DNA from: a virus
Taxonomy: Duplodnaviria > Heunggongvirae > Uroviricota > Caudoviricetes
Length of the DNA stretch: 9,230 nt
IMG/VR virus record: IMGVR_UViG_2740892218_000012
Reading direction: 5' to 3' (one strand)
The position numbers and the translations under genes are program-made. How positions within the stretch are numbered: position 1 is the first letter of the stretch; the number at the start of each line of letters is the position of its first letter. Below are positions 1,749 to 9,230 of this stretch, piece by piece. The notes beneath the pieces were generated by a model. It was given only the letters and a program-made list of their open reading frames with translations, did no database searches and was not told where the DNA came from.

Positions 1749-2174
1749 TTAGTGCATCACCACGGCATTTCCTGCCGGGCCACCGCGATTAATCTGGTTG
1801 AAACCAGCAATTGCCACCGCAATAAAATCATCTGCATCCCTCACCAGCCGCTCCCGCGTCTCCAGCAGCTCCCGAAAATAGGCTGAACTGTGACTGCGCA
1901 TTCGGGCCACCAGCAGAGGCGGCATTGCCTTTTCGATCGCAGGTAACAACGCCTGAATTTTTTCAACCGCATCAGGAGTGTCTTTCTCTACCCAGCGGAA
2001 AATTTTCTGGGTATTGCGAGCCAGGGCTTCCGGATGGCTGTTGTCGTACAGTTCAGGAAACGTCATACCCAGTTCGAAATACGCTTTGGTAATTTTCGCA
2101 GTCGGTACTTTTTCTCCATCCGGATGCGCCCAGGCATTCATCGCCATGCGGATGTGTTCATGCTTGATTTTCAT
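1749..2174 (-). CDS. ydaT: YdaT-like protein (reported as a toxin and as a CII-like regulator in Rac-type prophages)
   Basis: 141-aa ORF directly downstream of the Cro-like gene, with AAGAGG SD 8 nt upstream of the ATG. Size and position match Rac ydaT (140 aa). Recognised from memory of the family, not by search. Confidence 0.65.
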   Translation of the reverse strand: MKIKHEHIRMAMNAWAHPDGEKVPTAKITKAYFELGMTFPELYDNSHPEALARNTQKIFRWVEKDTPDAVEKIQALLPAIEKAMPPLLVARMRSHSSAYFRELLETRERLVRDADDFIAVAIAGFNQINRGGPAGNAVVMH

Positions 2175-2196
2175 GAATCATTTGCCTCTTGATGTT

Positions 2197-2493
2197 TCAG
2201 GTATGATCAAATGAGGATTTGTTACTGTCATTTAGTTGCTTCACTGACATATTCTGCGAATAACATGCCGAACGTCGTAAATATGACCAGTCAATATCAG
2301 GACGAAGTTCTTCGCACAGAACGTCACCTCTTGTTGCACGTTCAATTGCTGGACATCTCTCTGCAGGCAATTGACGTACCCCTTTGATCCATTGATTTAC
2401 GCTTGGAGGTGATACACCTAAAAGCCTAGCCATTGCTGATTGCCCACCGACAACAGCACAAGCTCGCTTGAATGAATAGTTCTCTTTTTTCAT
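2197..2493 (-). CDS. ydaS: Cro-type HTH regulator (YdaS-like)
   Basis: 98-aa ORF divergent from the repressor gene. HTH segment QSAMARLLGVSPPSVNQWIKG. GGAG SD 8 nt upstream of the ATG. Size matches Rac YdaS (98 aa). Confidence 0.7.
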   Translation of the reverse strand: MKKENYSFKRACAVVGGQSAMARLLGVSPPSVNQWIKGVRQLPAERCPAIERATRGDVLCEELRPDIDWSYLRRSACYSQNMSVKQLNDSNKSSFDHT

Positions 2494-2519
2494 CGAATGA
2501 ACTCCAAAAACACACAGAG

Positions 2520-2589
2520 ATATTAGGCGACGCCTAATACTAATGTCAATAGGCTATGCCTAATGCAGTAAGAATAGGGATTGCCTAAT
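2520..2589. promoter_or_regulatory. OR-like operator cluster (three 17-bp palindromes ATTAGGC-N3-GCCTAAT) overlapping a minus-strand promoter for the cro-like gene
   Basis: O1 2522..2538 attaggcgacgcctaat (perfect; extends to a 19-bp perfect palindrome 2521..2539). O2 2548..2564 aataggctatgcctaat. O3 2573..2589 aatagggattgcctaat. Starts are 26 and 25 bp apart. Minus-strand promoter: -35 TTGACA (plus 2544..2549), 18-bp spacer, -10 TAATAT (plus 2520..2525), overlapping O1. Confidence 0.6.
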
Positions 2590-2616
2590 ACAATGAGCAT
2601 AGGAGAATATTAAGCA

Positions 2617-3093
2617 ATGCTTAGTGGTAAAGACTTAGGCCGAGCAATAGAGCAGGCCATTAACAAAAAAATCGCATCGGGATCCGTCAAATCAAAGGCG
2701 GAGGTCGCTCGCCACTTCAAAGTCCAACCACCATCAATCTATGACTGGATTAAGAAAGGCTCCATAAGTAAAGATAAACTTCCAGAATTATGGCGTTTCT
2801 TTTCTGATGTTGTTGGTCCAGAGCATTGGGGGCTTAACGAATACCCCATACCAACCCCCACCAACTCAGATACAAAAAGTGAACTTTTAGACATAAACAA
2901 CCTTTATCAGGCAGCCTCTGATGAAATAAGAGCGATTGTAGCTTTCCTGTTATCAGGAAATGCTACAGAACCAGACTGGGTTGACCACGATGTTCGCGCC
3001 TACATAGCAGCGATGGAAATGAAAGTTGGTAAGTATCTGAAAGTTCTAGAATCTGAACGGAAAAGCCAGAACATCACAAAAACTGGAACTTAA
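2617..3093 (+). CDS. racR: Prophage repressor (RacR-like, CI analogue)
   Basis: 158-aa ORF between the two operator clusters, divergent from the cro-like gene. HTH segment SKAEVARHFKVQPPSIYDWIKKG. AGGAG SD 11 nt upstream of the ATG. Size equals Rac RacR (158 aa). Confidence 0.75.
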   Translation: MLSGKDLGRAIEQAINKKIASGSVKSKAEVARHFKVQPPSIYDWIKKGSISKDKLPELWRFFSDVVGPEHWGLNEYPIPTPTNSDTKSELLDINNLYQAASDEIRAIVAFLLSGNATEPDWVDHDVRAYIAAMEMKVGKYLKVLESERKSQNITKTGT

Positions 3094-3188
3094 ACTTATA
3101 TGGTCTGACGGAAAACTCCTGGATTCCGTTATTTAATCCCTCCCATCACTTTTTTCATTCGCATCACCTATTGGGTTACGCCCAGAAC

Positions 3189-3232
3189 ATTAGGCAAAGC
3201 CTATTGACAATCAATTAGGCATTACCTATAGT
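3189..3232 (+). promoter_or_regulatory. pL-like sigma70 promoter (TTGACA-17-TATAGT) overlapped by two operator palindromes (OL-like)
   Basis: -35 TTGACA at 3204..3209, exact 17-bp spacer, -10 TATAGT at 3227..3232. Operators: 3189..3205 attaggcaaagcctatt and 3214..3230 attaggcattacctata, same half-site as the OR sites, 25-bp phasing, covering the -35 and -10. Confidence 0.6.
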
Positions 3233-3409
3233 TCCAGCATGCCACCCACCCCGCCCCACAGCACGCAGGGCAATACTTCGAGTTACCAGGCAGTGGTCAG
3301 GGGTTAAGTAGCCAGCCCGAGGCGTAAGAACATGACGGCAGGGTTCAACTTTAACTATGCAGCAGGTTTTTGTTCCGCTACCCCGGCGTTAAGGGGAAAT
3401 GAGGTCAGC

Positions 3410-3562
3410 ATGGATACTATCGATCTTGGCAACAACGAATCTCTGGTGTACGGCGTGTTTCCCAACCAGGACGGCACGTTCACCGCGATGACGTATACCA
3501 AAAGTAAAACGTTTAAAACCGAAGCTGGCGCGCATCGCTGGTTAGCAAGAAACTCTGACTGA
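3410..3562 (+). CDS. ydaF: Small phage protein (YdaF-like, DUF1391-type), 50 aa; in-frame alternative start at 3332
   Basis: GAGG at 3401..3404, 5 nt upstream of the ATG at 3410; reads MDTIDLGNNESLVYGVFPNQDGTFTAMTYTKSKTFKTEAGAHRWLARNSD. First gene after the pL-like promoter. The track ORF 3332..3562 is the same frame extended to an upstream ATG with a weaker RBS. Confidence 0.5.
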   Translation: MDTIDLGNNESLVYGVFPNQDGTFTAMTYTKSKTFKTEAGAHRWLARNSD

Positions 3563-3573
3563 TGAGGTTGACG

Positions 3574-4212
3574 ATGGAATTTAAAGATTTACCTACTTCA
3601 ATCCAGGAGATTGCAGCACACACACTTCGTCATCGTCTGAACGAACTTGCATTGGAATCGGTAACGAAAAAAGACACTGATAATATGGCTCGTAATGTGC
3701 GCGATGCGTTTACCGGATTGTATTTCTGTGCGTCTGTAAATAAACACGACTCAGAGAGTGTGGCAAATAAAATTGCAGAAACGACAGCGCAAAACATCAA
3801 TACGAAACCAACGGAAGAAGAAATTGATCAGTTTGCTCATGATGCTGGTTTAAAAAACAAGAAAGAAAAATCGCCATATGCGGGGAACATGTTTGTTTAT
3901 GACAATCTCATCAGAATTCGTGGCGAAATTCCGGCGGAATACCTGGCAAGAGTCCATCAGGCATTGCTTAAAAATCTGGAAACAGAATTATTTGATGGCA
4001 ACACTAACGGTTTCTTCATGGTATCAGGCCTTGAGAAAGACTGGGATGCAGAAAAACGCTGGAATGTTGCTACATGGTTATTCAGTAACAGAGCCGCTGC
4101 TCTGGAAGCTTCGGCATGTATTTGCGGCCTGTTCTTAACAGACCACAAATATAATCTGGATGTGTACAGTTATATTTACGCTGAACACGGTCCGCTCTGG
4201 ATTGACTGGTAA
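3574..4212 (+). CDS. Hypothetical protein, 212 aa, no recognisable motif (accessory cargo)
   Basis: GAGG at 3564..3567, 6 nt upstream of the ATG at 3574 (the track ORF starts at the in-frame ATG at 3562, overlapping the upstream stop as TGATG). Long uninterrupted ORF with ordinary amino-acid composition, visibly AT-richer than neighbours. I could not assign it to any family from sequence alone. Confidence 0.6.
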   Translation: MEFKDLPTSIQEIAAHTLRHRLNELALESVTKKDTDNMARNVRDAFTGLYFCASVNKHDSESVANKIAETTAQNINTKPTEEEIDQFAHDAGLKNKKEKSPYAGNMFVYDNLIRIRGEIPAEYLARVHQALLKNLETELFDGNTNGFFMVSGLEKDWDAEKRWNVATWLFSNRAAALEASACICGLFLTDHKYNLDVYSYIYAEHGPLWIDW

Positions 4213-4422
4213 TTATAAGGAAACACCAGCAGGGCCGCGGCGACCAACAGAACGATTAAAATCAATAATGCCATTATAAAGGACATTATTTAATTTATCG
4301 TCGAATGCTGATTCTGTGAGCCTCAACTCTGAATGAGTTTTTAATAACCCTGATTGCCTGAGTTGATTTACTAGGCATTCAATCTGTTTTTCAATAAGCG
4401 GATTTCTTTTTTTGTTTGGCAT
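4213..4422 (-). CDS. Hypothetical small protein, 69 aa (73 aa if the upstream ATG at 4434 is used), convergent with the 212-aa ORF
   Basis: Minus-strand ATG at 4422..4420 preceded by GGAGG (plus 4428..4432, 5-nt spacer). Stop (plus TTA 4213..4215) abuts the TAA stop of the plus-strand gene (4210..4212). Lies in AT-rich DNA. No convincing promoter found, so confidence is limited. Confidence 0.4.
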   Translation of the reverse strand: MPNKKRNPLIEKQIECLVNQLRQSGLLKTHSELRLTESAFDDKLNNVLYNGIIDFNRSVGRRGPAGVSL

Positions 4423-4758
4423 TTTATCCTCCATTGAGGTTCTGGGTTAAAAATGGAGACCAACACGCTGTCACGTGTGGTCGTGCGCCGGACACGGATA
4501 AGAATCCGGTACTGACAGTTTACTGAAAGGATATATCCCTGAAAAGCCAGGGCATAACGCGAAAGCACACGGCGAAATTGGTCTCTCTGTACGGTGTCGT
4601 TAAATTTAATTCGACCGTGCGCTTCCGGTTGTGGCACTCCGCGAAATGGCGCGGCGGTAAGTATGGCGGGGTTATTCCTTCCCCGTTGAGGACACCGGGT
4701 TGTCAGGTTGACCATACGCTTAAGTGACAACCCCGCTACAACGCCCTCTGTTATCAAT

Positions 4759-4816
4759 TTTCTGGTGGCGTTTGGCGGTATCAGTTTTACTCCGTGACTG
4801 CTCTGCCGCCCTTTTT
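4759..4816 (+). ncRNA. dicF: DicF-like small RNA with intrinsic terminator (cell-division-inhibiting sRNA family of lambdoid prophages)
   Basis: Sequence tttctggtggcgtttggcggtatcagttttactccgtgactgctctgccgccc followed by TTTTT closely matches my recollection of E. coli DicF (UUUCUGGUGACGUUUGGCGG...CUGCCGCCC). It lies in an ORF-free stretch of the pL-like operon, upstream of a kil-type gene. Confidence 0.6.
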
Positions 4817-4990
4817 AAAGTGAATTTTGTGATGCGGTGAATGCGGCTAAGCGCACGCGGAACAGTTAAAACCAAAAACAGTGTTATGGGTGGATTCTCT
4901 GTATCCGGCGTTAATTGTTAACTGGTTAACGTCACCTGGAGGCACCAGGCACCGCATCAACAAAGTTCATTTGTAAAAATGGAGATAATT

Positions 4991-5212
4991 ATGATTGCTC
5001 ATCACTTCGGAACTGATGAGATTCCTCGTCAGTGCGTGACTCCCGGTGATTATGTTATTCATAAAGGAAGAACATATATTGCTTCGGTAAACAACATTAA
5101 AAAACAACGGCTCTATATTCGTGATTTTTCCACACAACACTGTATTAAGGAAACCATGATTAAAGTCTTCCTTGGTCGTGATGGTTTACCTGTAAAAGCA
5201 GAGTCATGGTGA
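4991..5212 (+). CDS. kilR: Kil-type small protein (KilR-like host killing/cell-division inhibitor), 73 aa
   Basis: GGAG at 4981..4984, 6 nt upstream of the ATG at 4991 (the track ORF starts 4 codons earlier at 4979, with no SD). Product [21 protein letters not shown]...[12 protein letters not shown]. Size equals Rac KilR (73 aa), and position (between sieB-slot cargo and the exonuclease) matches. Confidence 0.6.
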
Positions 5213-5335
5213 ACAGTAATAAAATAACTGCCACAATACGACATTCAGCTTAATGAATACATCAGATTTGATTCTTATATGCCAGCAATGGCAGGGATTT
5301 GTTCATCCTTAAATCTGTCATGAGGTTAAAACAAA

Positions 5336-7807
5336 ATGAGTAAAGTCTTTATTTGCGCCGCCATTCCGGACGAACAGGCAATAAAGGAAGAAGGTGCAAT
5401 TGCTGTAGCCACTGCCATTGAAGCCGGTGACGAACGCCGCGCCCGTGCCAAATTTACCTGGCAATTCCTGGAGCAATATCCGGCTGCTCAGGACTGCGCT
5501 TATAAATTTCTTGTCTGCGAGGATAAACCCGGCATGCCCCGCCCTGCTATCGACTCCTGGGATACCGAATATATGCAGGAAAACCGCTGGGATGAGGAAT
5601 CCGCTTCCTTTATTCCGGTCGAACCAGAATCCGATCCGATGAACGTCAATTTTGACAAGCTGTCCCTTGAAGTACAGAACGCGGTCCTGGTTAAGTTCGG
5701 TACATGTGAAAACATCACCGTTGATATGGTGATTAGTGCTCAGGAATTACTGCAGGAGGACATGGCAACATTCGACGGGCATATCGTTGAGGCATTGATG
5801 AAAATGCCTGAAGTTAACGTCATGTATTCAGAGCTTAAGCTGCTCGCCATCGGGTGGGTTAAACATAAATGTAAGCCGGGTGCAAAATGGCCTGAGATCC
5901 AGACAGAATTACGCACCTGGAAAAAACGTCGCGAAGCCGAACGCAAAGAAACCGGGAAATACACGTCTGTTGTTGATCTTGCCCGCGCCAGAGTCAACCG
6001 GCAGAACACTGAAAATTCAGTAGCGAAAATCCCCCCAGCCACTGCCACCATTCGTCGCGAATACAAGCAGACATGGAAAACACTGGATGATGAACTGGCC
6101 TACGCTCTGTGGCCTGGTGACATTGATACCGGAAACATTGACGGCAGCATCCATCGCTGGGCAAAAAATGAAGTTATCGACAACGACCGCGAAGACTGGA
6201 AGCGTATCTCGGCATCAATGCGCAAACAGCCTGATGCCCTTCGCTACGACCGCCAGACTATTTTTGGCCTTGTCCGTGAACGTCCGATCGACATTCACAA
6301 AGCCCCTGTGGCACTGAACAAATACATTACTGAATACCTGACTACAAAGGGCGTGTTTGAAGATGAAGGAACAAATCAGAGCGCAACTGATACTCTCTCG
6401 TCGCCAGTACCAGAAACTGATGCAGTGGAAACGGCAATTCCGGACAACGAAAAAACCGAATGCAAAGTGGAAGTCGAACCATCTGTAGAGCGTGAAGGGC
6501 CGTTCTACTTCCTCTTCACCGACAAGGATGGCGAAAAATATGGTCGCGCAAACAAACTTTCTGGTCTGAATAAGGCGCTGACTGCAGGGGCTACTGAAAT
6601 CACGAAAGAAGAATATTTTGCCCGCAAAAACGGTACATACTCAGGTTCACAACAAAATACTGGTGCATCTGACACGACCGCACAACCAGAGCCGGTAAAA
6701 GTTACCGCTGAAGAAGTAAACAAAATTATGCAGGCAGCCAATATCAGCCAGCCTGACGCCGATAAGTTGCTTGCTGCCTCTCGCGGAGAATTTGTTGCAG
6801 GGATTAGCGACCCGAATGATCCGAAATGGGTGAAGGGGATTGAAACCCGCGACTCTGTAAACCAGAACCAGCAAGAATCGGAACAGAACGACCAGAAAAC
6901 GGAACAAAACAGCCCAAATGCGCAACAAAACGAGCCAGAAACGAAACAGGTTGAACCAGTAGCGCAACAGGAGCCGGAAAAAGCCTGCACCGCCTGCGGT
7001 CAGACCGGCGGCGGTAGCTGCCCTGATTGTGGTGCGGTGATGGGCGACGCAACATACCAGGAAATATTCGATGAAGAGAATCAGCCTGAAGTTCAGGAAA
7101 ATGATCCGGAGGAAATGGAAGGCACTGCGCATCAGCACAAGGAGAACACTGGCGGCAATCAGCATCATGCCAGCGATAGTGAAACTGGCGAGGCGTCAGA
7201 TCCCTTAATTAAGGCGAACGGTCATCATAATCTCACATCCACCAGCAGAGCGGGGATTCATCTGATGATCGACCTTGAAACCATGGGAAAAAATCCTGAT
7301 GCCCCGATTATCTCAATAGGTGCAATATTTTTCGATCCGCAAACCGGAGATATGGGACCGGAATTTAGTAAGACTGTCGATCTGGAAACTGCTGGCGGAG
7401 TCATTGATCGGGACACCATTAAATGGTGGCTTAAGCAATCACGCGAAGCGCAATCTGCCATTATGACCGATGAAATCCCGTTAGATGATGCACTGTTACA
7501 ATTGCGGGAATTTATCGACGAAAACTCCGGTGAATTTTTTGTTCAGGTCTGGGGAAATGGAGCAAACTTCGACAACACGATTTTGCGCCGTTCATACGAA
7601 CGGCAGGGGATCCCCTGCCCGTGGCGTTACTACAACGATCGCGATATACGCACAATCGTTGAGCTGGGGAAAGCCATAGACTTCGATGCCAGAACTGCTA
7701 TCCCATTCGAAGGTGAGCGCCATAATGCACTTGATGACGCTCGTTACCAGGCAAAATACGTTTCAGCTATCTGGCAAAAACTGATCCCGAGTCAGGCTGA
7801 TTTTTAA
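5336..7807 (+). CDS. Large prophage exonuclease, 823 aa: N-terminal region of unknown function, acidic Q/E/N-rich linker, CxxC-x7-CxxC zinc-ribbon motif, C-terminal DnaQ-like DEDDh 3'-5' exonuclease domain
   Basis: C-terminal motifs MIDLETMG (Exo I, DxE), WGNGANFDNTIL (Exo II) and HNALDDARY (Exo III, H-x4-D) are diagnostic of the DEDDh fold. CTACGQTGGGSCPDCG is encoded at about 6986..7030. Occupies the exo/recE slot of the pL operon; such genes are often auto-annotated exodeoxyribonuclease VIII. Confidence 0.85.
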   Translation: MSKVFICAAIPDEQAIKEEGAIAVATAIEAGDERRARAKFTWQFLEQYPAAQDCAYKFLVCEDKPGMPRPAIDSWDTEYMQENRWDEESASFIPVEPESDPMNVNFDKLSLEVQNAVLVKFGTCENITVDMVISAQELLQEDMATFDGHIVEALMKMPEVNVMYSELKLLAIGWVKHKCKPGAKWPEIQTELRTWKKRREAERKETGKYTSVVDLARARVNRQNTENSVAKIPPATATIRREYKQTWKTLDDELAYALWPGDIDTGNIDGSIHRWAKNEVIDNDREDWKRISASMRKQPDALRYDRQTIFGLVRERPIDIHKAPVALNKYITEYLTTKGVFEDEGTNQSATDTLSSPVPETDAVETAIPDNEKTECKVEVEPSVEREGPFYFLFTDKDGEKYGRANKLSGLNKALTAGATEITKEEYFARKNGTYSGSQQNTGASDTTAQPEPVKVTAEEVNKIMQAANISQPDADKLLAASRGEFVAGISDPNDPKWVKGIETRDSVNQNQQESEQNDQKTEQNSPNAQQNEPETKQVEPVAQQEPEKACTACGQTGGGSCPDCGAVMGDATYQEIFDEENQPEVQENDPEEMEGTAHQHKENTGGNQHHASDSETGEASDPLIKANGHHNLTSTSRAGIHLMIDLETMGKNPDAPIISIGAIFFDPQTGDMGPEFSKTVDLETAGGVIDRDTIKWWLKQSREAQSAIMTDEIPLDDALLQLREFIDENSGEFFVQVWGNGANFDNTILRRSYERQGIPCPWRYYNDRDIRTIVELGKAIDFDARTAIPFEGERHNALDDARYQAKYVSAIWQKLIPSQADF

Positions 7808-7859: not shown

Positions 7860-8069
7860 ATGGCTATGAGCAGCTTATTTTTAACCGAAGATGAATTGCT
7901 AACATTAACGGGCTGCAAATATGCAAGCCACCAGCGAAAATGGTTAATGGAAAACGGGCTTCCGTTCTATACCAATCGTAGTGGCAAACCGATTGTCAGC
8001 CGGGATCTATTTACCTGCAATAAAACTTTACCACCACGCGAGGTAGAGCCGAATTTTGGTGCAATCTGA
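7860..8069 (+). CDS. Putative excisionase / recombination directionality factor
   Basis: 69-aa ORF immediately upstream of int, with its stop overlapping the int start (ATGA at 8066..8069), the classic xis-int arrangement. Assignment is by position and size only. Confidence 0.5.
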   Translation: MAMSSLFLTEDELLTLTGCKYASHQRKWLMENGLPFYTNRSGKPIVSRDLFTCNKTLPPREVEPNFGAI

Positions 8070-9094
8070 TGGGAAGACGAAGGAAAAATCCTGAACACGA
8101 AAAATTACCTCCAAATGTATACCCAAATAAATATAGTTATGTATGGAAACCAACATCCAGAGAATCTGTCACACTAACCGCCATCAAGGATGGTTTAGCT
8201 GCTTTATGGAAAAAGTATGAGGAAACTGTAAATAATCGCGATCGCGCAATGACATTCGGTCGCTTGTGGGAAAAATTCCTCGCCAGCGCCTATTACAGTG
8301 ACCTCAGTCCAAGAACACAAAAAGATTATCTGCAACATCAAAAAAAGTTGCTTGCCGTATTCGGTAAGGTGCCGGCAGATTCCATAAAACCAGAACACAT
8401 CCGTCGATACATGGACAAGAGAGGGGAACAGAGTAAAACGCAAGCCAACCATGAAAAAAGCAGTATGTCCCGCGTTTACAGTTGGGGGTATGAGCGAGGG
8501 TACGTGAAGGGTAACCCATGTGCAGGTGTAAGTAAATTCAAGGCCAAAAACCGCGAACGATATGTAACCGACAAAGAATACCAGGCAGTATTAAGTGTTG
8601 CACCTCTTCCTGTTTTTATCGCAATGGAAATTGCCTATCTGTGTGCAGCGAGGGTTTCCGATGTGTTATCACTGAAATGGGAGCAGATTGGAAACGACGG
8701 GATCTTTATCCAGCAAGGGAAAACAGGGAAAAAACAGATAAAAGCATGGAGTCCACGATTACAGGCGGCGATCGAAAAAGCAAAACAGTTACCAACATCT
8801 GCCTATGTAATCAGCAATCAATATGGCAACCGATATATGTACAAAGGTTTTAACGAAATGTGGGTAGAAGCAAGAAATCACGCAGGCAAAATTTCAGGTA
8901 TTTTAACCGACTTCACCTTTCATGATCTGAAGGCGAAAGGAATTTCAGACTATGAAGGAAGCAGCCGGGATAAGCAACTTTTCTCTGGTCACAAAACCGA
9001 AGGGCAAGTGCTAATCTATGACAGAAAGGTTAAAGTTTCACCAACACTTGATGTCCCGTTACCTGATAATATTCCAAGAAAATATTCCAAGTAA
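8069..9094 (+). CDS. Lambda-family tyrosine integrase, 341 aa
   Basis: N-terminus MGRRRKNPEHEKLPPNVY resembles the lambda Int arm-binding domain (MGRRRSHERRDLPPNLY). Catalytic-region motifs present: AARVSDV (Arg I), QGKTGKK (Lys), FHDLKAKG (His, with Lys where Arg II is expected), SGHKTEG (His), LIYDRK (Tyr). Adjacent to a tRNA 3' end. Confidence 0.9.
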   Translation: MGRRRKNPEHEKLPPNVYPNKYSYVWKPTSRESVTLTAIKDGLAALWKKYEETVNNRDRAMTFGRLWEKFLASAYYSDLSPRTQKDYLQHQKKLLAVFGKVPADSIKPEHIRRYMDKRGEQSKTQANHEKSSMSRVYSWGYERGYVKGNPCAGVSKFKAKNRERYVTDKEYQAVLSVAPLPVFIAMEIAYLCAARVSDVLSLKWEQIGNDGIFIQQGKTGKKQIKAWSPRLQAAIEKAKQLPTSAYVISNQYGNRYMYKGFNEMWVEARNHAGKISGILTDFTFHDLKAKGISDYEGSSRDKQLFSGHKTEGQVLIYDRKVKVSPTLDVPLPDNIPRKYSK

Positions 9095-9146: not shown

Positions 9147-9230
9147 TGGCGGAGAGAGGGGGATTTGAACCCCCGGTGGAGTTGCCCCCACTCCGGTTTT
9201 CGAGACCGGTCCGTTCAGCCGCTCCGGCAT
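9147..9230 (-). tRNA. serU: tRNA-Ser (anticodon CGA), 3' 84 nt including the encoded CCA; the 5' 6 nt lie beyond the window edge
   Basis: Reverse complement of 9147..9230 reads ATGCCGGAGCGGCTGAACGGACCGGTCTCGAAAACCGGAGTGGGGGCAACTCCACCGGGGGTTCAAATCCCCCTCTCTCCGCCA. Anticodon stem CCGGT/ACCGG with loop CTCGAAA (anticodon CGA), long variable arm GTGGGG-GCAA-CTCCAC, T-arm GGGGG-TTCAAAT-CCCCC, acceptor 3' strand plus CCA. Confidence 0.85.

Follow-up and report, generated by a model that had tools for sequence, protein, structure and literature searches.

A G10 allele of the DicF small RNA precedes a kil gene in a mosaic lambdoid prophage

Introduction

In phage lambda, kil encodes a small FtsZ-directed division inhibitor within the pL early-left operon of a lambdoid genome, and to our knowledge no DicF-type sRNA lies 5' of kil in that phage. 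Two prophages of Escherichia coli K-12 are closer to the locus described here: Qin, with the operon ydfABC-dicF-dicB-ydfD, and Rac, with KilS-kilR. EHEC reportedly has four dicF copies, the subject of Melson and Kendall (2019).

Mature DicF is a 53-nt RNA produced by Rho-independent termination and RNase E trimming, while RNase III cuts the full-length RNA of the operon to give a 72-nt form (PMC9438474). The sRNA is Hfq-dependent and represses ftsZ via its 3' region and xylR via its 5' end, with pykA and manX also repressed (PMC5069750; PMC5861419). Pairing with ftsZ was proven genetically in K-12, and several prophage contexts, as well as multiple copies, are known for DicF (PMC5069750). Under laboratory conditions, the dicBF operon of K-12 is silent (PMC6832061). 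In Rac, a northern-verified sRNA of 98 nt, KilS, is located in the kilR 5' UTR (Bar et al. 2021, PMC8175672), in a paper where DicF goes unmentioned. The function of KilR is known from the literature, and kilR of Rac is silenced by NusG-dependent termination (PMC10798246).

Here we analyze a stretch of 9,230 nucleotides from the IMG/VR virus record IMGVR_UViG_2740892218_000012 (hereafter the window), in which a first-pass annotation, made from the letters alone, had placed a DicF-like sRNA next to a kil-type gene. We put at about 0.85 the probability that positions 4759-4816 hold a bona fide dicF, in a G10 allele, within an early-left, pL-type operon of a mosaic lambdoid prophage at tRNA-Ser(CGA), with a K-12-like mechanism as suggested by homology.

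Results

DicF and its terminator

An Rfam search of the whole window (cmscan) returned DicF (RF00039) at 4760-4811 on the plus strand, with 76.4 bits against a gathering score of 48 and an E-value of 6.2e-16, in agreement with the DicF-like sRNA proposed by the first-pass annotation. The match spans model positions 1-52 of 52, is not truncated and contains no non-canonical pairs; K-12 dicF obtained 76.7 bits in the same test. Besides DicF, the sole other strong ncRNA match in the window is a truncated tRNA, and the remaining matches, all below threshold (CRISPR-DR41, snoU49 and anti-hemB, E 0.02-0.06), were treated as chance.

Compared with K-12 dicF and its U-tract, the segment 4759-4816 differs at a single one of its 58 positions, A10G: nucleotide 10 is a G here (GGUGGCG) and an A in K-12 (GGUGACG), and editing G10 to A yields the exact K-12 sequence, U-tract included. 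The GGC-for-GAC difference recognized at first reading is thus the only change, and the boundaries proposed then were also exact, with the 53-nt mature form at 4759..4811 (+) and the U-tract at 4812-4816. In the alignment, everything from nucleotide 11 through the U-tract, as well as the flanks of the DicF 5' end, is identical to K-12. Nucleotides 11-53, which include the loop and the 3' region pairing with the ftsZ ribosome-binding site, are therefore the same as in K-12 DicF.

The Rho-independent terminator of DicF (4774..4816, +) is given by the Rfam consensus structure, in which 4774-4780 pair with 4804-4810 around an inner stem. Its stems consist of standard pairs only, are followed by UUUUU at 4812-4816 and have the K-12 sequence, and folding assigns -15.9 kcal/mol to the canonical hairpin. 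A simple terminator scan did not report this terminator because of its loop-size limit (3-8 nt), and we relied on the Rfam structure and folding instead to define it. On the 5' side, positions 4482..4758 (+) correspond by blastn and alignment to the Qin-type precursor region, namely the ydfC 3' end and 3' UTR, with the sequence context of the RNase E site described in the literature (AUCAAU/UUUCUGG, the slash marking the site). Since the segment 4482-4971, comprising these 277 nt upstream and the leader downstream, is 92.5% identical to Qin, the sequence context of DicF processing is kept.

Prophage context

Genes were called as ORFs with Pfam and PHROG matches, and mosaic segments were defined by blastn against K-12 Qin, K-12 Rac and phages, together with a five-way alignment. 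The minus strand carries a DnaC-like loader (137-883), a replication O-like gene split in two (890-1402 and 1495-1725), YdaT (1749-2174) and a YdaS/Cro-type gene (2197-2493; Pfam YdaS_toxin, E 1e-30). The two parts of the O-like gene lie in different frames, a 76-aa ORF matching PHROG 391 positions 1-57 and a 170-aa ORF matching positions 130-298, which points to a frameshift or deletion and to a prophage defective in replication. On the plus strand, a RacR-type repressor of 158 aa (2617-3093) falls within a segment 95% identical to Rac, where racR is annotated in related genomes.

The first gene of the DicF-bearing operon is a DUF1391 gene of the ydfA/ydaF type (3332-3562, +; Pfam DUF1391, E 1e-28; 93% to Qin ydfA), followed by a 216-aa ORF of unknown function (3562-4212, +; PHROG 2151). 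A 73-aa ORF (4213-4434, -; PHROG 4274) is antisense to the presumed early-left transcript, a placement that resembles sieB in Rac. Both the PHROG 2151 and the PHROG 4274 ORFs, located between the DUF1391 gene and DicF, are conserved in phages. Further downstream, the operon contains an 823-aa exonuclease (5336-7807, +) with an Rv2179c-like 3'-5' exonuclease domain (Pfam PF16473, E 7e-67; PHROG 2082 over its full length), and then come an excisionase (7860-8069), an integrase (8069-9094) and a tRNA cut off by the window end (9150-9230, -). The corresponding tRNA in a near-identical genome is tRNA-Ser(CGA), adjoining mtfA. With the order racR-type repressor, DUF1391 gene, DicF, leader, kil, exonuclease, xis, int and tRNA-Ser, in which the 216-aa and antisense ORFs precede DicF, the sRNA occupies the immunity-proximal early-left operon of a lambdoid prophage, 5' of a division-inhibitor gene.

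In the blastn comparison, the best match is Rac ydaS-racR for 2151-3397 (95% nucleotide identity), the Qin stretch from the ydfC 3' end through dicF to the dicB leader for 4482-4971 (92.5%, and 93% for phage Tritos), the Rac stretch from the KilS 3' end to kilR for 4806-5227 (82.6%), and Qin ydfE or the Tritos exonuclease from 5251 onward, into the 5' part of the exonuclease gene (~88%). Judged by these matches, the prophage is a mosaic of Rac-type immunity, a Qin-type dicF segment, a Rac-type kil cassette and a Qin-type exonuclease. The earlier label of a Rac-like operon consequently fits the immunity region (95%) and kil (83% at the nucleotide level), but neither the Qin-type dicF segment nor the exonuclease, which is of the Qin/CP-933P type and not RecE.

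The comparison with Qin is the closest for the sRNA itself. Both share 57 of the 58 nucleotides, the terminator, the ftsZ-pairing loop and 3' region, the upstream precursor and downstream leader (92.5% over 490 bp), and the early-left position after the DUF1391 gene. The window differs from Qin in the A10G seed, in having kil for dicB-ydfD and a RacR-type repressor for DicA, and in the genes between DUF1391 and dicF, where Qin has ydfB and ydfC in place of the 216-aa ORF and the antisense 73-aa ORF.

As for transcription, a consensus scan proposed a candidate pL-like promoter (TTGACA-17-TATAGT, 11/12) at 3204..3232 (+), although promoter-consensus matches in the region are no more numerous than in shuffled sequence. 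The candidate sits 3' of racR, in the 95% Rac-identical segment. The promoter scan also gave a divergent PydaST-like promoter (TTGACA-18-TAATAT) at 2549-2520 (-), and the PydaST of Rac has been published with the same hexamers and 18-bp spacing (PMC11879457).

Kil and the leader

The gene next to DicF is kil (4991..5212, +), which encodes a KilR-type FtsZ inhibitor of 73 aa and has its Shine-Dalgarno sequence, GGAG, at 4981-4984. The protein is 81% identical to K-12 KilR over 73/73 aa (E 2e-47) and matches PHROG 294, 'Kil protein for bacterial septation inhibition' (E 8e-33), which supports the initial call of a KilR-like gene in place of dicB. From its homology, Kil would inhibit FtsZ ring formation. 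The same call had DicF immediately upstream of kil; the gene order is correct, but a leader of 175 nt intervenes, a spacing equal to that of dicF-dicB in K-12.

We found no tblastn match to DicB, the 62-aa MinC-activating protein, downstream of the DicF leader, where kil occupies the slot. The leader contains a 31-codon GTG ORF (4881..4976, +), annotated by PGAP as a 'partial DicB' pseudogene in NZ_CP039404.1 (at the equivalent of ~4881-4964). A residual dicB was considered at this place and rejected, for the call covers merely the leader ORF 5' of the true dicB ATG. In Qin this ORF continues in frame into the dicB ATG, while here a 1-nt indel leads to a TAA stop, and the leader ORF encodes no true DicB residues. 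The PGAP call itself suggests that the reference protein set contains DicB entries extended too far at the N-terminus.

In Tritos, dicB-ydfD lies between the flanks that here enclose kil (~4972-5250), and this comparison shows that a kil cassette has replaced dicB-ydfD. The alignment places the crossover at ~4950-4976, directly 5' of the kil Shine-Dalgarno sequence, where the window switches from Qin-type to Rac-type sequence at the 3' strand of a long-range helix.

This helix belongs to a conserved, structured leader (4813..4998, +) that is STnc100-like. Its match to RF02076 covers the full-length model at 38.3 bits (E 3e-6), below the gathering score of 47, and is taken as a resemblance only; the Qin, Tritos and Rac-SA53 leaders gave comparable matches. 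Minimum free energy (MFE) folding of 4759-5000 predicts 20 base pairs between 4819..4839 and 4950..4971 (both +), the 3' strand ending ~10 nt before the Shine-Dalgarno sequence of kil, or of dicB in leaders of that type, with a z-score of -4.9 and none of 200 shuffles folding as well. RNAalifold recovered the same 20 pairs over 47 unique leaders of dicB, kil and Rac type, with at most one non-canonical pair in each helix column and G.U-tolerant variation at five pairs. At one pair, a C-G to U-A double change is found in two sequences, together with ten U.G intermediates. Because the 47 leaders are closely similar, this covariation is thin and offers modest support.

The published 72-nt form of DicF would end at ~4830 here, inside the 5' strand of the helix. 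This end, together with a 3' strand so close to the kil Shine-Dalgarno sequence, makes the predicted helix probably an RNase III site.

Two other IMG/VR loci show different arrangements behind DicF. In one (L104), the slot after the leader, 414-976 nt past DicF, holds a pair of ORFs of 77 and 106 aa that resemble, as judged by eye only, a Phd/YefM-like antitoxin and a ParE/RelE-like toxin. In the other (L056), a 283-aa ORF is inserted before kil, 174-1025 nt after DicF.

The layout of the K-12 Rac KilS-kilR unit (b4833; PMC8175672) is the same as in the window: an sRNA with its terminator, a conserved leader of ~170 nt and kil. The terminator stem, leader and kil are homologous between the two (82.6% at the nucleotide level, 4806-5227) and the immunity regions are of the same type. 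The sRNA body differs, however, as the window carries a full DicF, and Rac kilR is followed by ydaE-racC-recE whereas kil is followed here by the Rv2179c-type exonuclease. KilS, on the minus strand of K-12 Rac (L006 7406-7503 = NC_000913.3 1418405-1418502), is the counterpart of window positions 4774-4816. On the DicF model it reached 39.1 bits, and its Rac-SA53 copy 41.1 bits, both below the gathering score of 48. Its 3' part aligns with the DicF terminator hairpin and the downstream leader is also common, but KilS has neither the 5' seed of DicF nor its ACUCCG loop. By blastn and alignment, the KilS-specific 5' body is absent from the window, with Rac homology starting at 4806, inside the terminator, and unrelated sequence upstream. 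Judged from these alignments, KilS and DicF are positional homologues and probably true homologues, with KilS a diverged DicF relative.

The A10G allele

For target pairing, the 5' and 3' parts of DicF were analyzed separately with their opening costs; full-length RNAduplex of DicF against its targets had been dropped, as the duplexes were unrealistically long. The predicted xylR duplex joins DicF nucleotides 5-16 with xylR +9 to +20, a region whose use of the 5' end of DicF has been established by genetics (PMC5069750), and places nucleotide 10 centrally, opposite a U. The first-pass annotation had suggested that the substitution could alter target specificity. Nucleotide 10 does fall within the xylR-pairing 5' region, but G10 would retain a G.U wobble and leave the duplex barely changed (-16.1 kcal/mol, compared with -16.7 for A10). 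The predicted duplex with K-12 ftsZ, from -29 to +12, is the same for A10 and G10.

Simulated folding of the sRNA alone gave a larger difference. G10 renders nucleotides 6-12 (GGUGGCG) fully complementary to nucleotides 46-52 (UGCCGCC), and only with G10 does an extended hairpin (-18.5 kcal/mol) replace the canonical one (-15.9 kcal/mol) as the minimum free energy structure. The predicted probability that nucleotides 1-14 are free is 0.004 in G10 against 0.67 in A10, and their opening cost is ~3.2 kcal/mol higher in G10. The switch persists in predictions from 25 to 42 C, and the natural variants at nucleotide 12, ACA and ACU, are predicted to fold like A10. Regarding the ftsZ-pairing side, opening nucleotides 26-36 is predicted to cost 1.75 kcal/mol in G10 against 5.0 in A10, while the CUCCG loop core is predicted to be less open (P 0.06 vs 0.76). 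The extended hairpin still adjoins the U-tract in the model, and termination should persist. Taken globally, these predictions suggest that the larger effect of A10G would be sequestration of the seed within the sRNA, rather than an altered xylR duplex, and Hfq could override this effect.

Distribution

The 651-bp DicF-kil stretch (4600-5250) is covered to at least 80% in 135 of 5,426 complete E. coli genomes, a collection in which ~3,950 genomes carry dicF and DicF has 6,348 places in all. Among E. coli records, 30 have the exact G10 58-mer as their best match and 3,054 the A10 58-mer. Phage Evi (LR597642.1; 99.1% identity over 4600-5250) and the ~135 complete genomes, such as NZ_CP039404.1, have the same DicF-leader-kil-exonuclease unit, at 99.1-99.7% over the 651 bp, and both Evi and NZ_CP039404.1 are G10. 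They differ from the window in their immunity and replication modules, with a LexA-family repressor in NZ_CP039404.1; kil is annotated in records of this type, and dicF itself is unannotated. The window is covered to 87% at most (at ~91% identity) by any single complete E. coli genome in the collection, which indicates that its combination of Rac-type immunity and a G10 DicF-kil arm is absent from these genomes.

Among the 120 IMG/VR DicF loci listed, a non-random sample, the gene after DicF is dicB in 101, kil directly in 3, and kil after an inserted ORF in 1; nucleotides 10-12 read ACG in 98, ACA in 14, ACT in 4 and GCG in 4. G10 was found with kil (L094, Evi and NZ_CP039404.1), with the inserted ORF and then kil (L056) and with dicB (L115), and A10 was found with kil in L034 and L036. 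Since G10 with dicB and A10 with kil both occur, the cassette swap and the SNP are independent events.

Across species-representative genomes, the DicF pattern occurred in Escherichia and Shigella and otherwise only in two contigs from gut MAGs, and the gapped DicF...kil pattern had no match. The two contigs (L134 and L135) were assigned to MAGs of Veillonella parvula and Collinsella, most likely through mis-binning of E. coli prophage contigs.

Discussion

From the K-12 identity around DicF and the promoters, we infer that the locus follows the pathway of Qin, Kil being the protein partner in place of DicB. Mechanistically, loss of the RacR-type repressor or failed Rho termination would lead to transcription from the promoter 3' of racR, and the transcript would cross the DUF1391 gene and the 216-aa gene into dicF. 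Part of the transcripts would end at the DicF terminator and have their 5' end trimmed by RNase E, giving the 53-nt, Hfq-dependent sRNA, while read-through transcripts would bear the structured leader and kil. In these, RNase III would cut the 20-bp leader helix to release the 72-nt DicF, separated from the kil mRNA. DicF would then repress ftsZ translation by its loop and 3' region, identical to K-12, and Kil would block FtsZ assembly, so that the locus would hit FtsZ twice, like dicF-dicB in Qin.

The G10 allele raises the idea of a functionally altered DicF, whose extended hairpin would hide the xylR-type 5' seed, leave the ftsZ-pairing loop largely open and narrow the range of the sRNA towards ftsZ. 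The switch in minimum free energy structure and the closure of the seed are specific to G10 from 25 to 42 C, nucleotide 10 pairs with a U of the xylR site in the region genetically tied to the DicF 5' end (PMC5069750), and nucleotides 26-36 are cheaper to open. We nevertheless regard this idea as rather doubtful: it is a thermodynamic prediction whose 2.6-3.4 kcal/mol gap is within Hfq remodelling and energy-model error, the G10.U pair with xylR is retained, and the less open CUCCG core means that ftsZ control could suffer too. In addition, the allele is rare and found with both dicB and kil downstream, as expected of a near-neutral SNP. More cautiously, a G10 seed folding onto the terminator stem might impair part of DicF function. 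Rarity also enters the view of the locus as an inert relic of a decaying cryptic prophage, never expressed and with a random A10G, as do the O-like gene split into two ORFs, the frameshifted integrase of the closest complete genome and the silence of dicBF in K-12 in laboratory conditions (PMC6832061). Given the split O-like gene, this prophage copy may indeed be defective and permanently repressed. A relic is nonetheless improbable, considering that the window retains intact genes for the integrase, the excisionase, the exonuclease, Kil and the repressor, that all the remaining DicF positions and the leader are intact too, and that an identical G10 DicF and kil unit is present in the sequenced phage record Evi.

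It is also conceivable, if unlikely, that the element works chiefly in cis, gating kil through termination and processing, with the trans-acting sRNA as a by-product. Such a role would be consistent with a terminator 175 nt 5' of kil, with the conserved 20-bp helix formed by the sRNA 3' flank and the region before the kil ribosome-binding site, and with a leader that precedes cargo as varied as dicB, kil and an apparent toxin-antitoxin pair; Rac, moreover, has the same layout with another sRNA body, KilS, where only terminator and leader are common, and kilR is kept silent by transcription termination (PMC10798246). A mere terminator, however, would not need the DicF body outside it to be conserved near base for base in thousands of genomes, and trans regulation by DicF has been shown experimentally in K-12 (PMC5069750). 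The cis and trans roles are, in any case, not mutually exclusive. We therefore retain the reading of the locus as a bona fide dicF with a mechanism like that of K-12.

Beyond this reading, we offer as a tentative proposal, one that we consider possible but well short of even odds, that a single sRNA slot in a module that recombines is occupied by DicF and KilS as diverged alleles; the module would consist of an sRNA with a common terminator, a leader whose helix connects the 3' flank of the sRNA with the stretch directly 5' of the cargo ribosome-binding site, and an exchangeable cargo (dicB, kil or others). Cleavage of the helix by RNase III would couple sRNA maturation to the fate of the cargo mRNA, and A10G would be a naturally occurring switch in RNA structure, concealing the 5' seed and restricting DicF towards ftsZ.

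The DicF family, its biogenesis, its targets and its varied prophage contexts are already known, and public genomes and a sequenced phage already contain the DicF-kil unit; what we describe is a known sRNA in a minor new context, which adds little to current knowledge. Transcription of an RNA and a protein division inhibitor in a single early-left unit, as first proposed, is plausible here, but the pairing brings no new logic either, with DicF-DicB in dicBF and KilS-KilR in Rac. Only two parts merit experiments, namely the fold switch predicted for A10G and the shared module of sRNA, helix and cargo. This rare allele offers a ready natural comparison for asking whether DicF needs its 5' seed single-stranded, and the helix is a possible link between sRNA maturation and the expression of a downstream toxin-like gene. 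Finally, the locus shows that DicB and Kil, two unrelated FtsZ-directed proteins, are interchangeable behind one sRNA and its leader.
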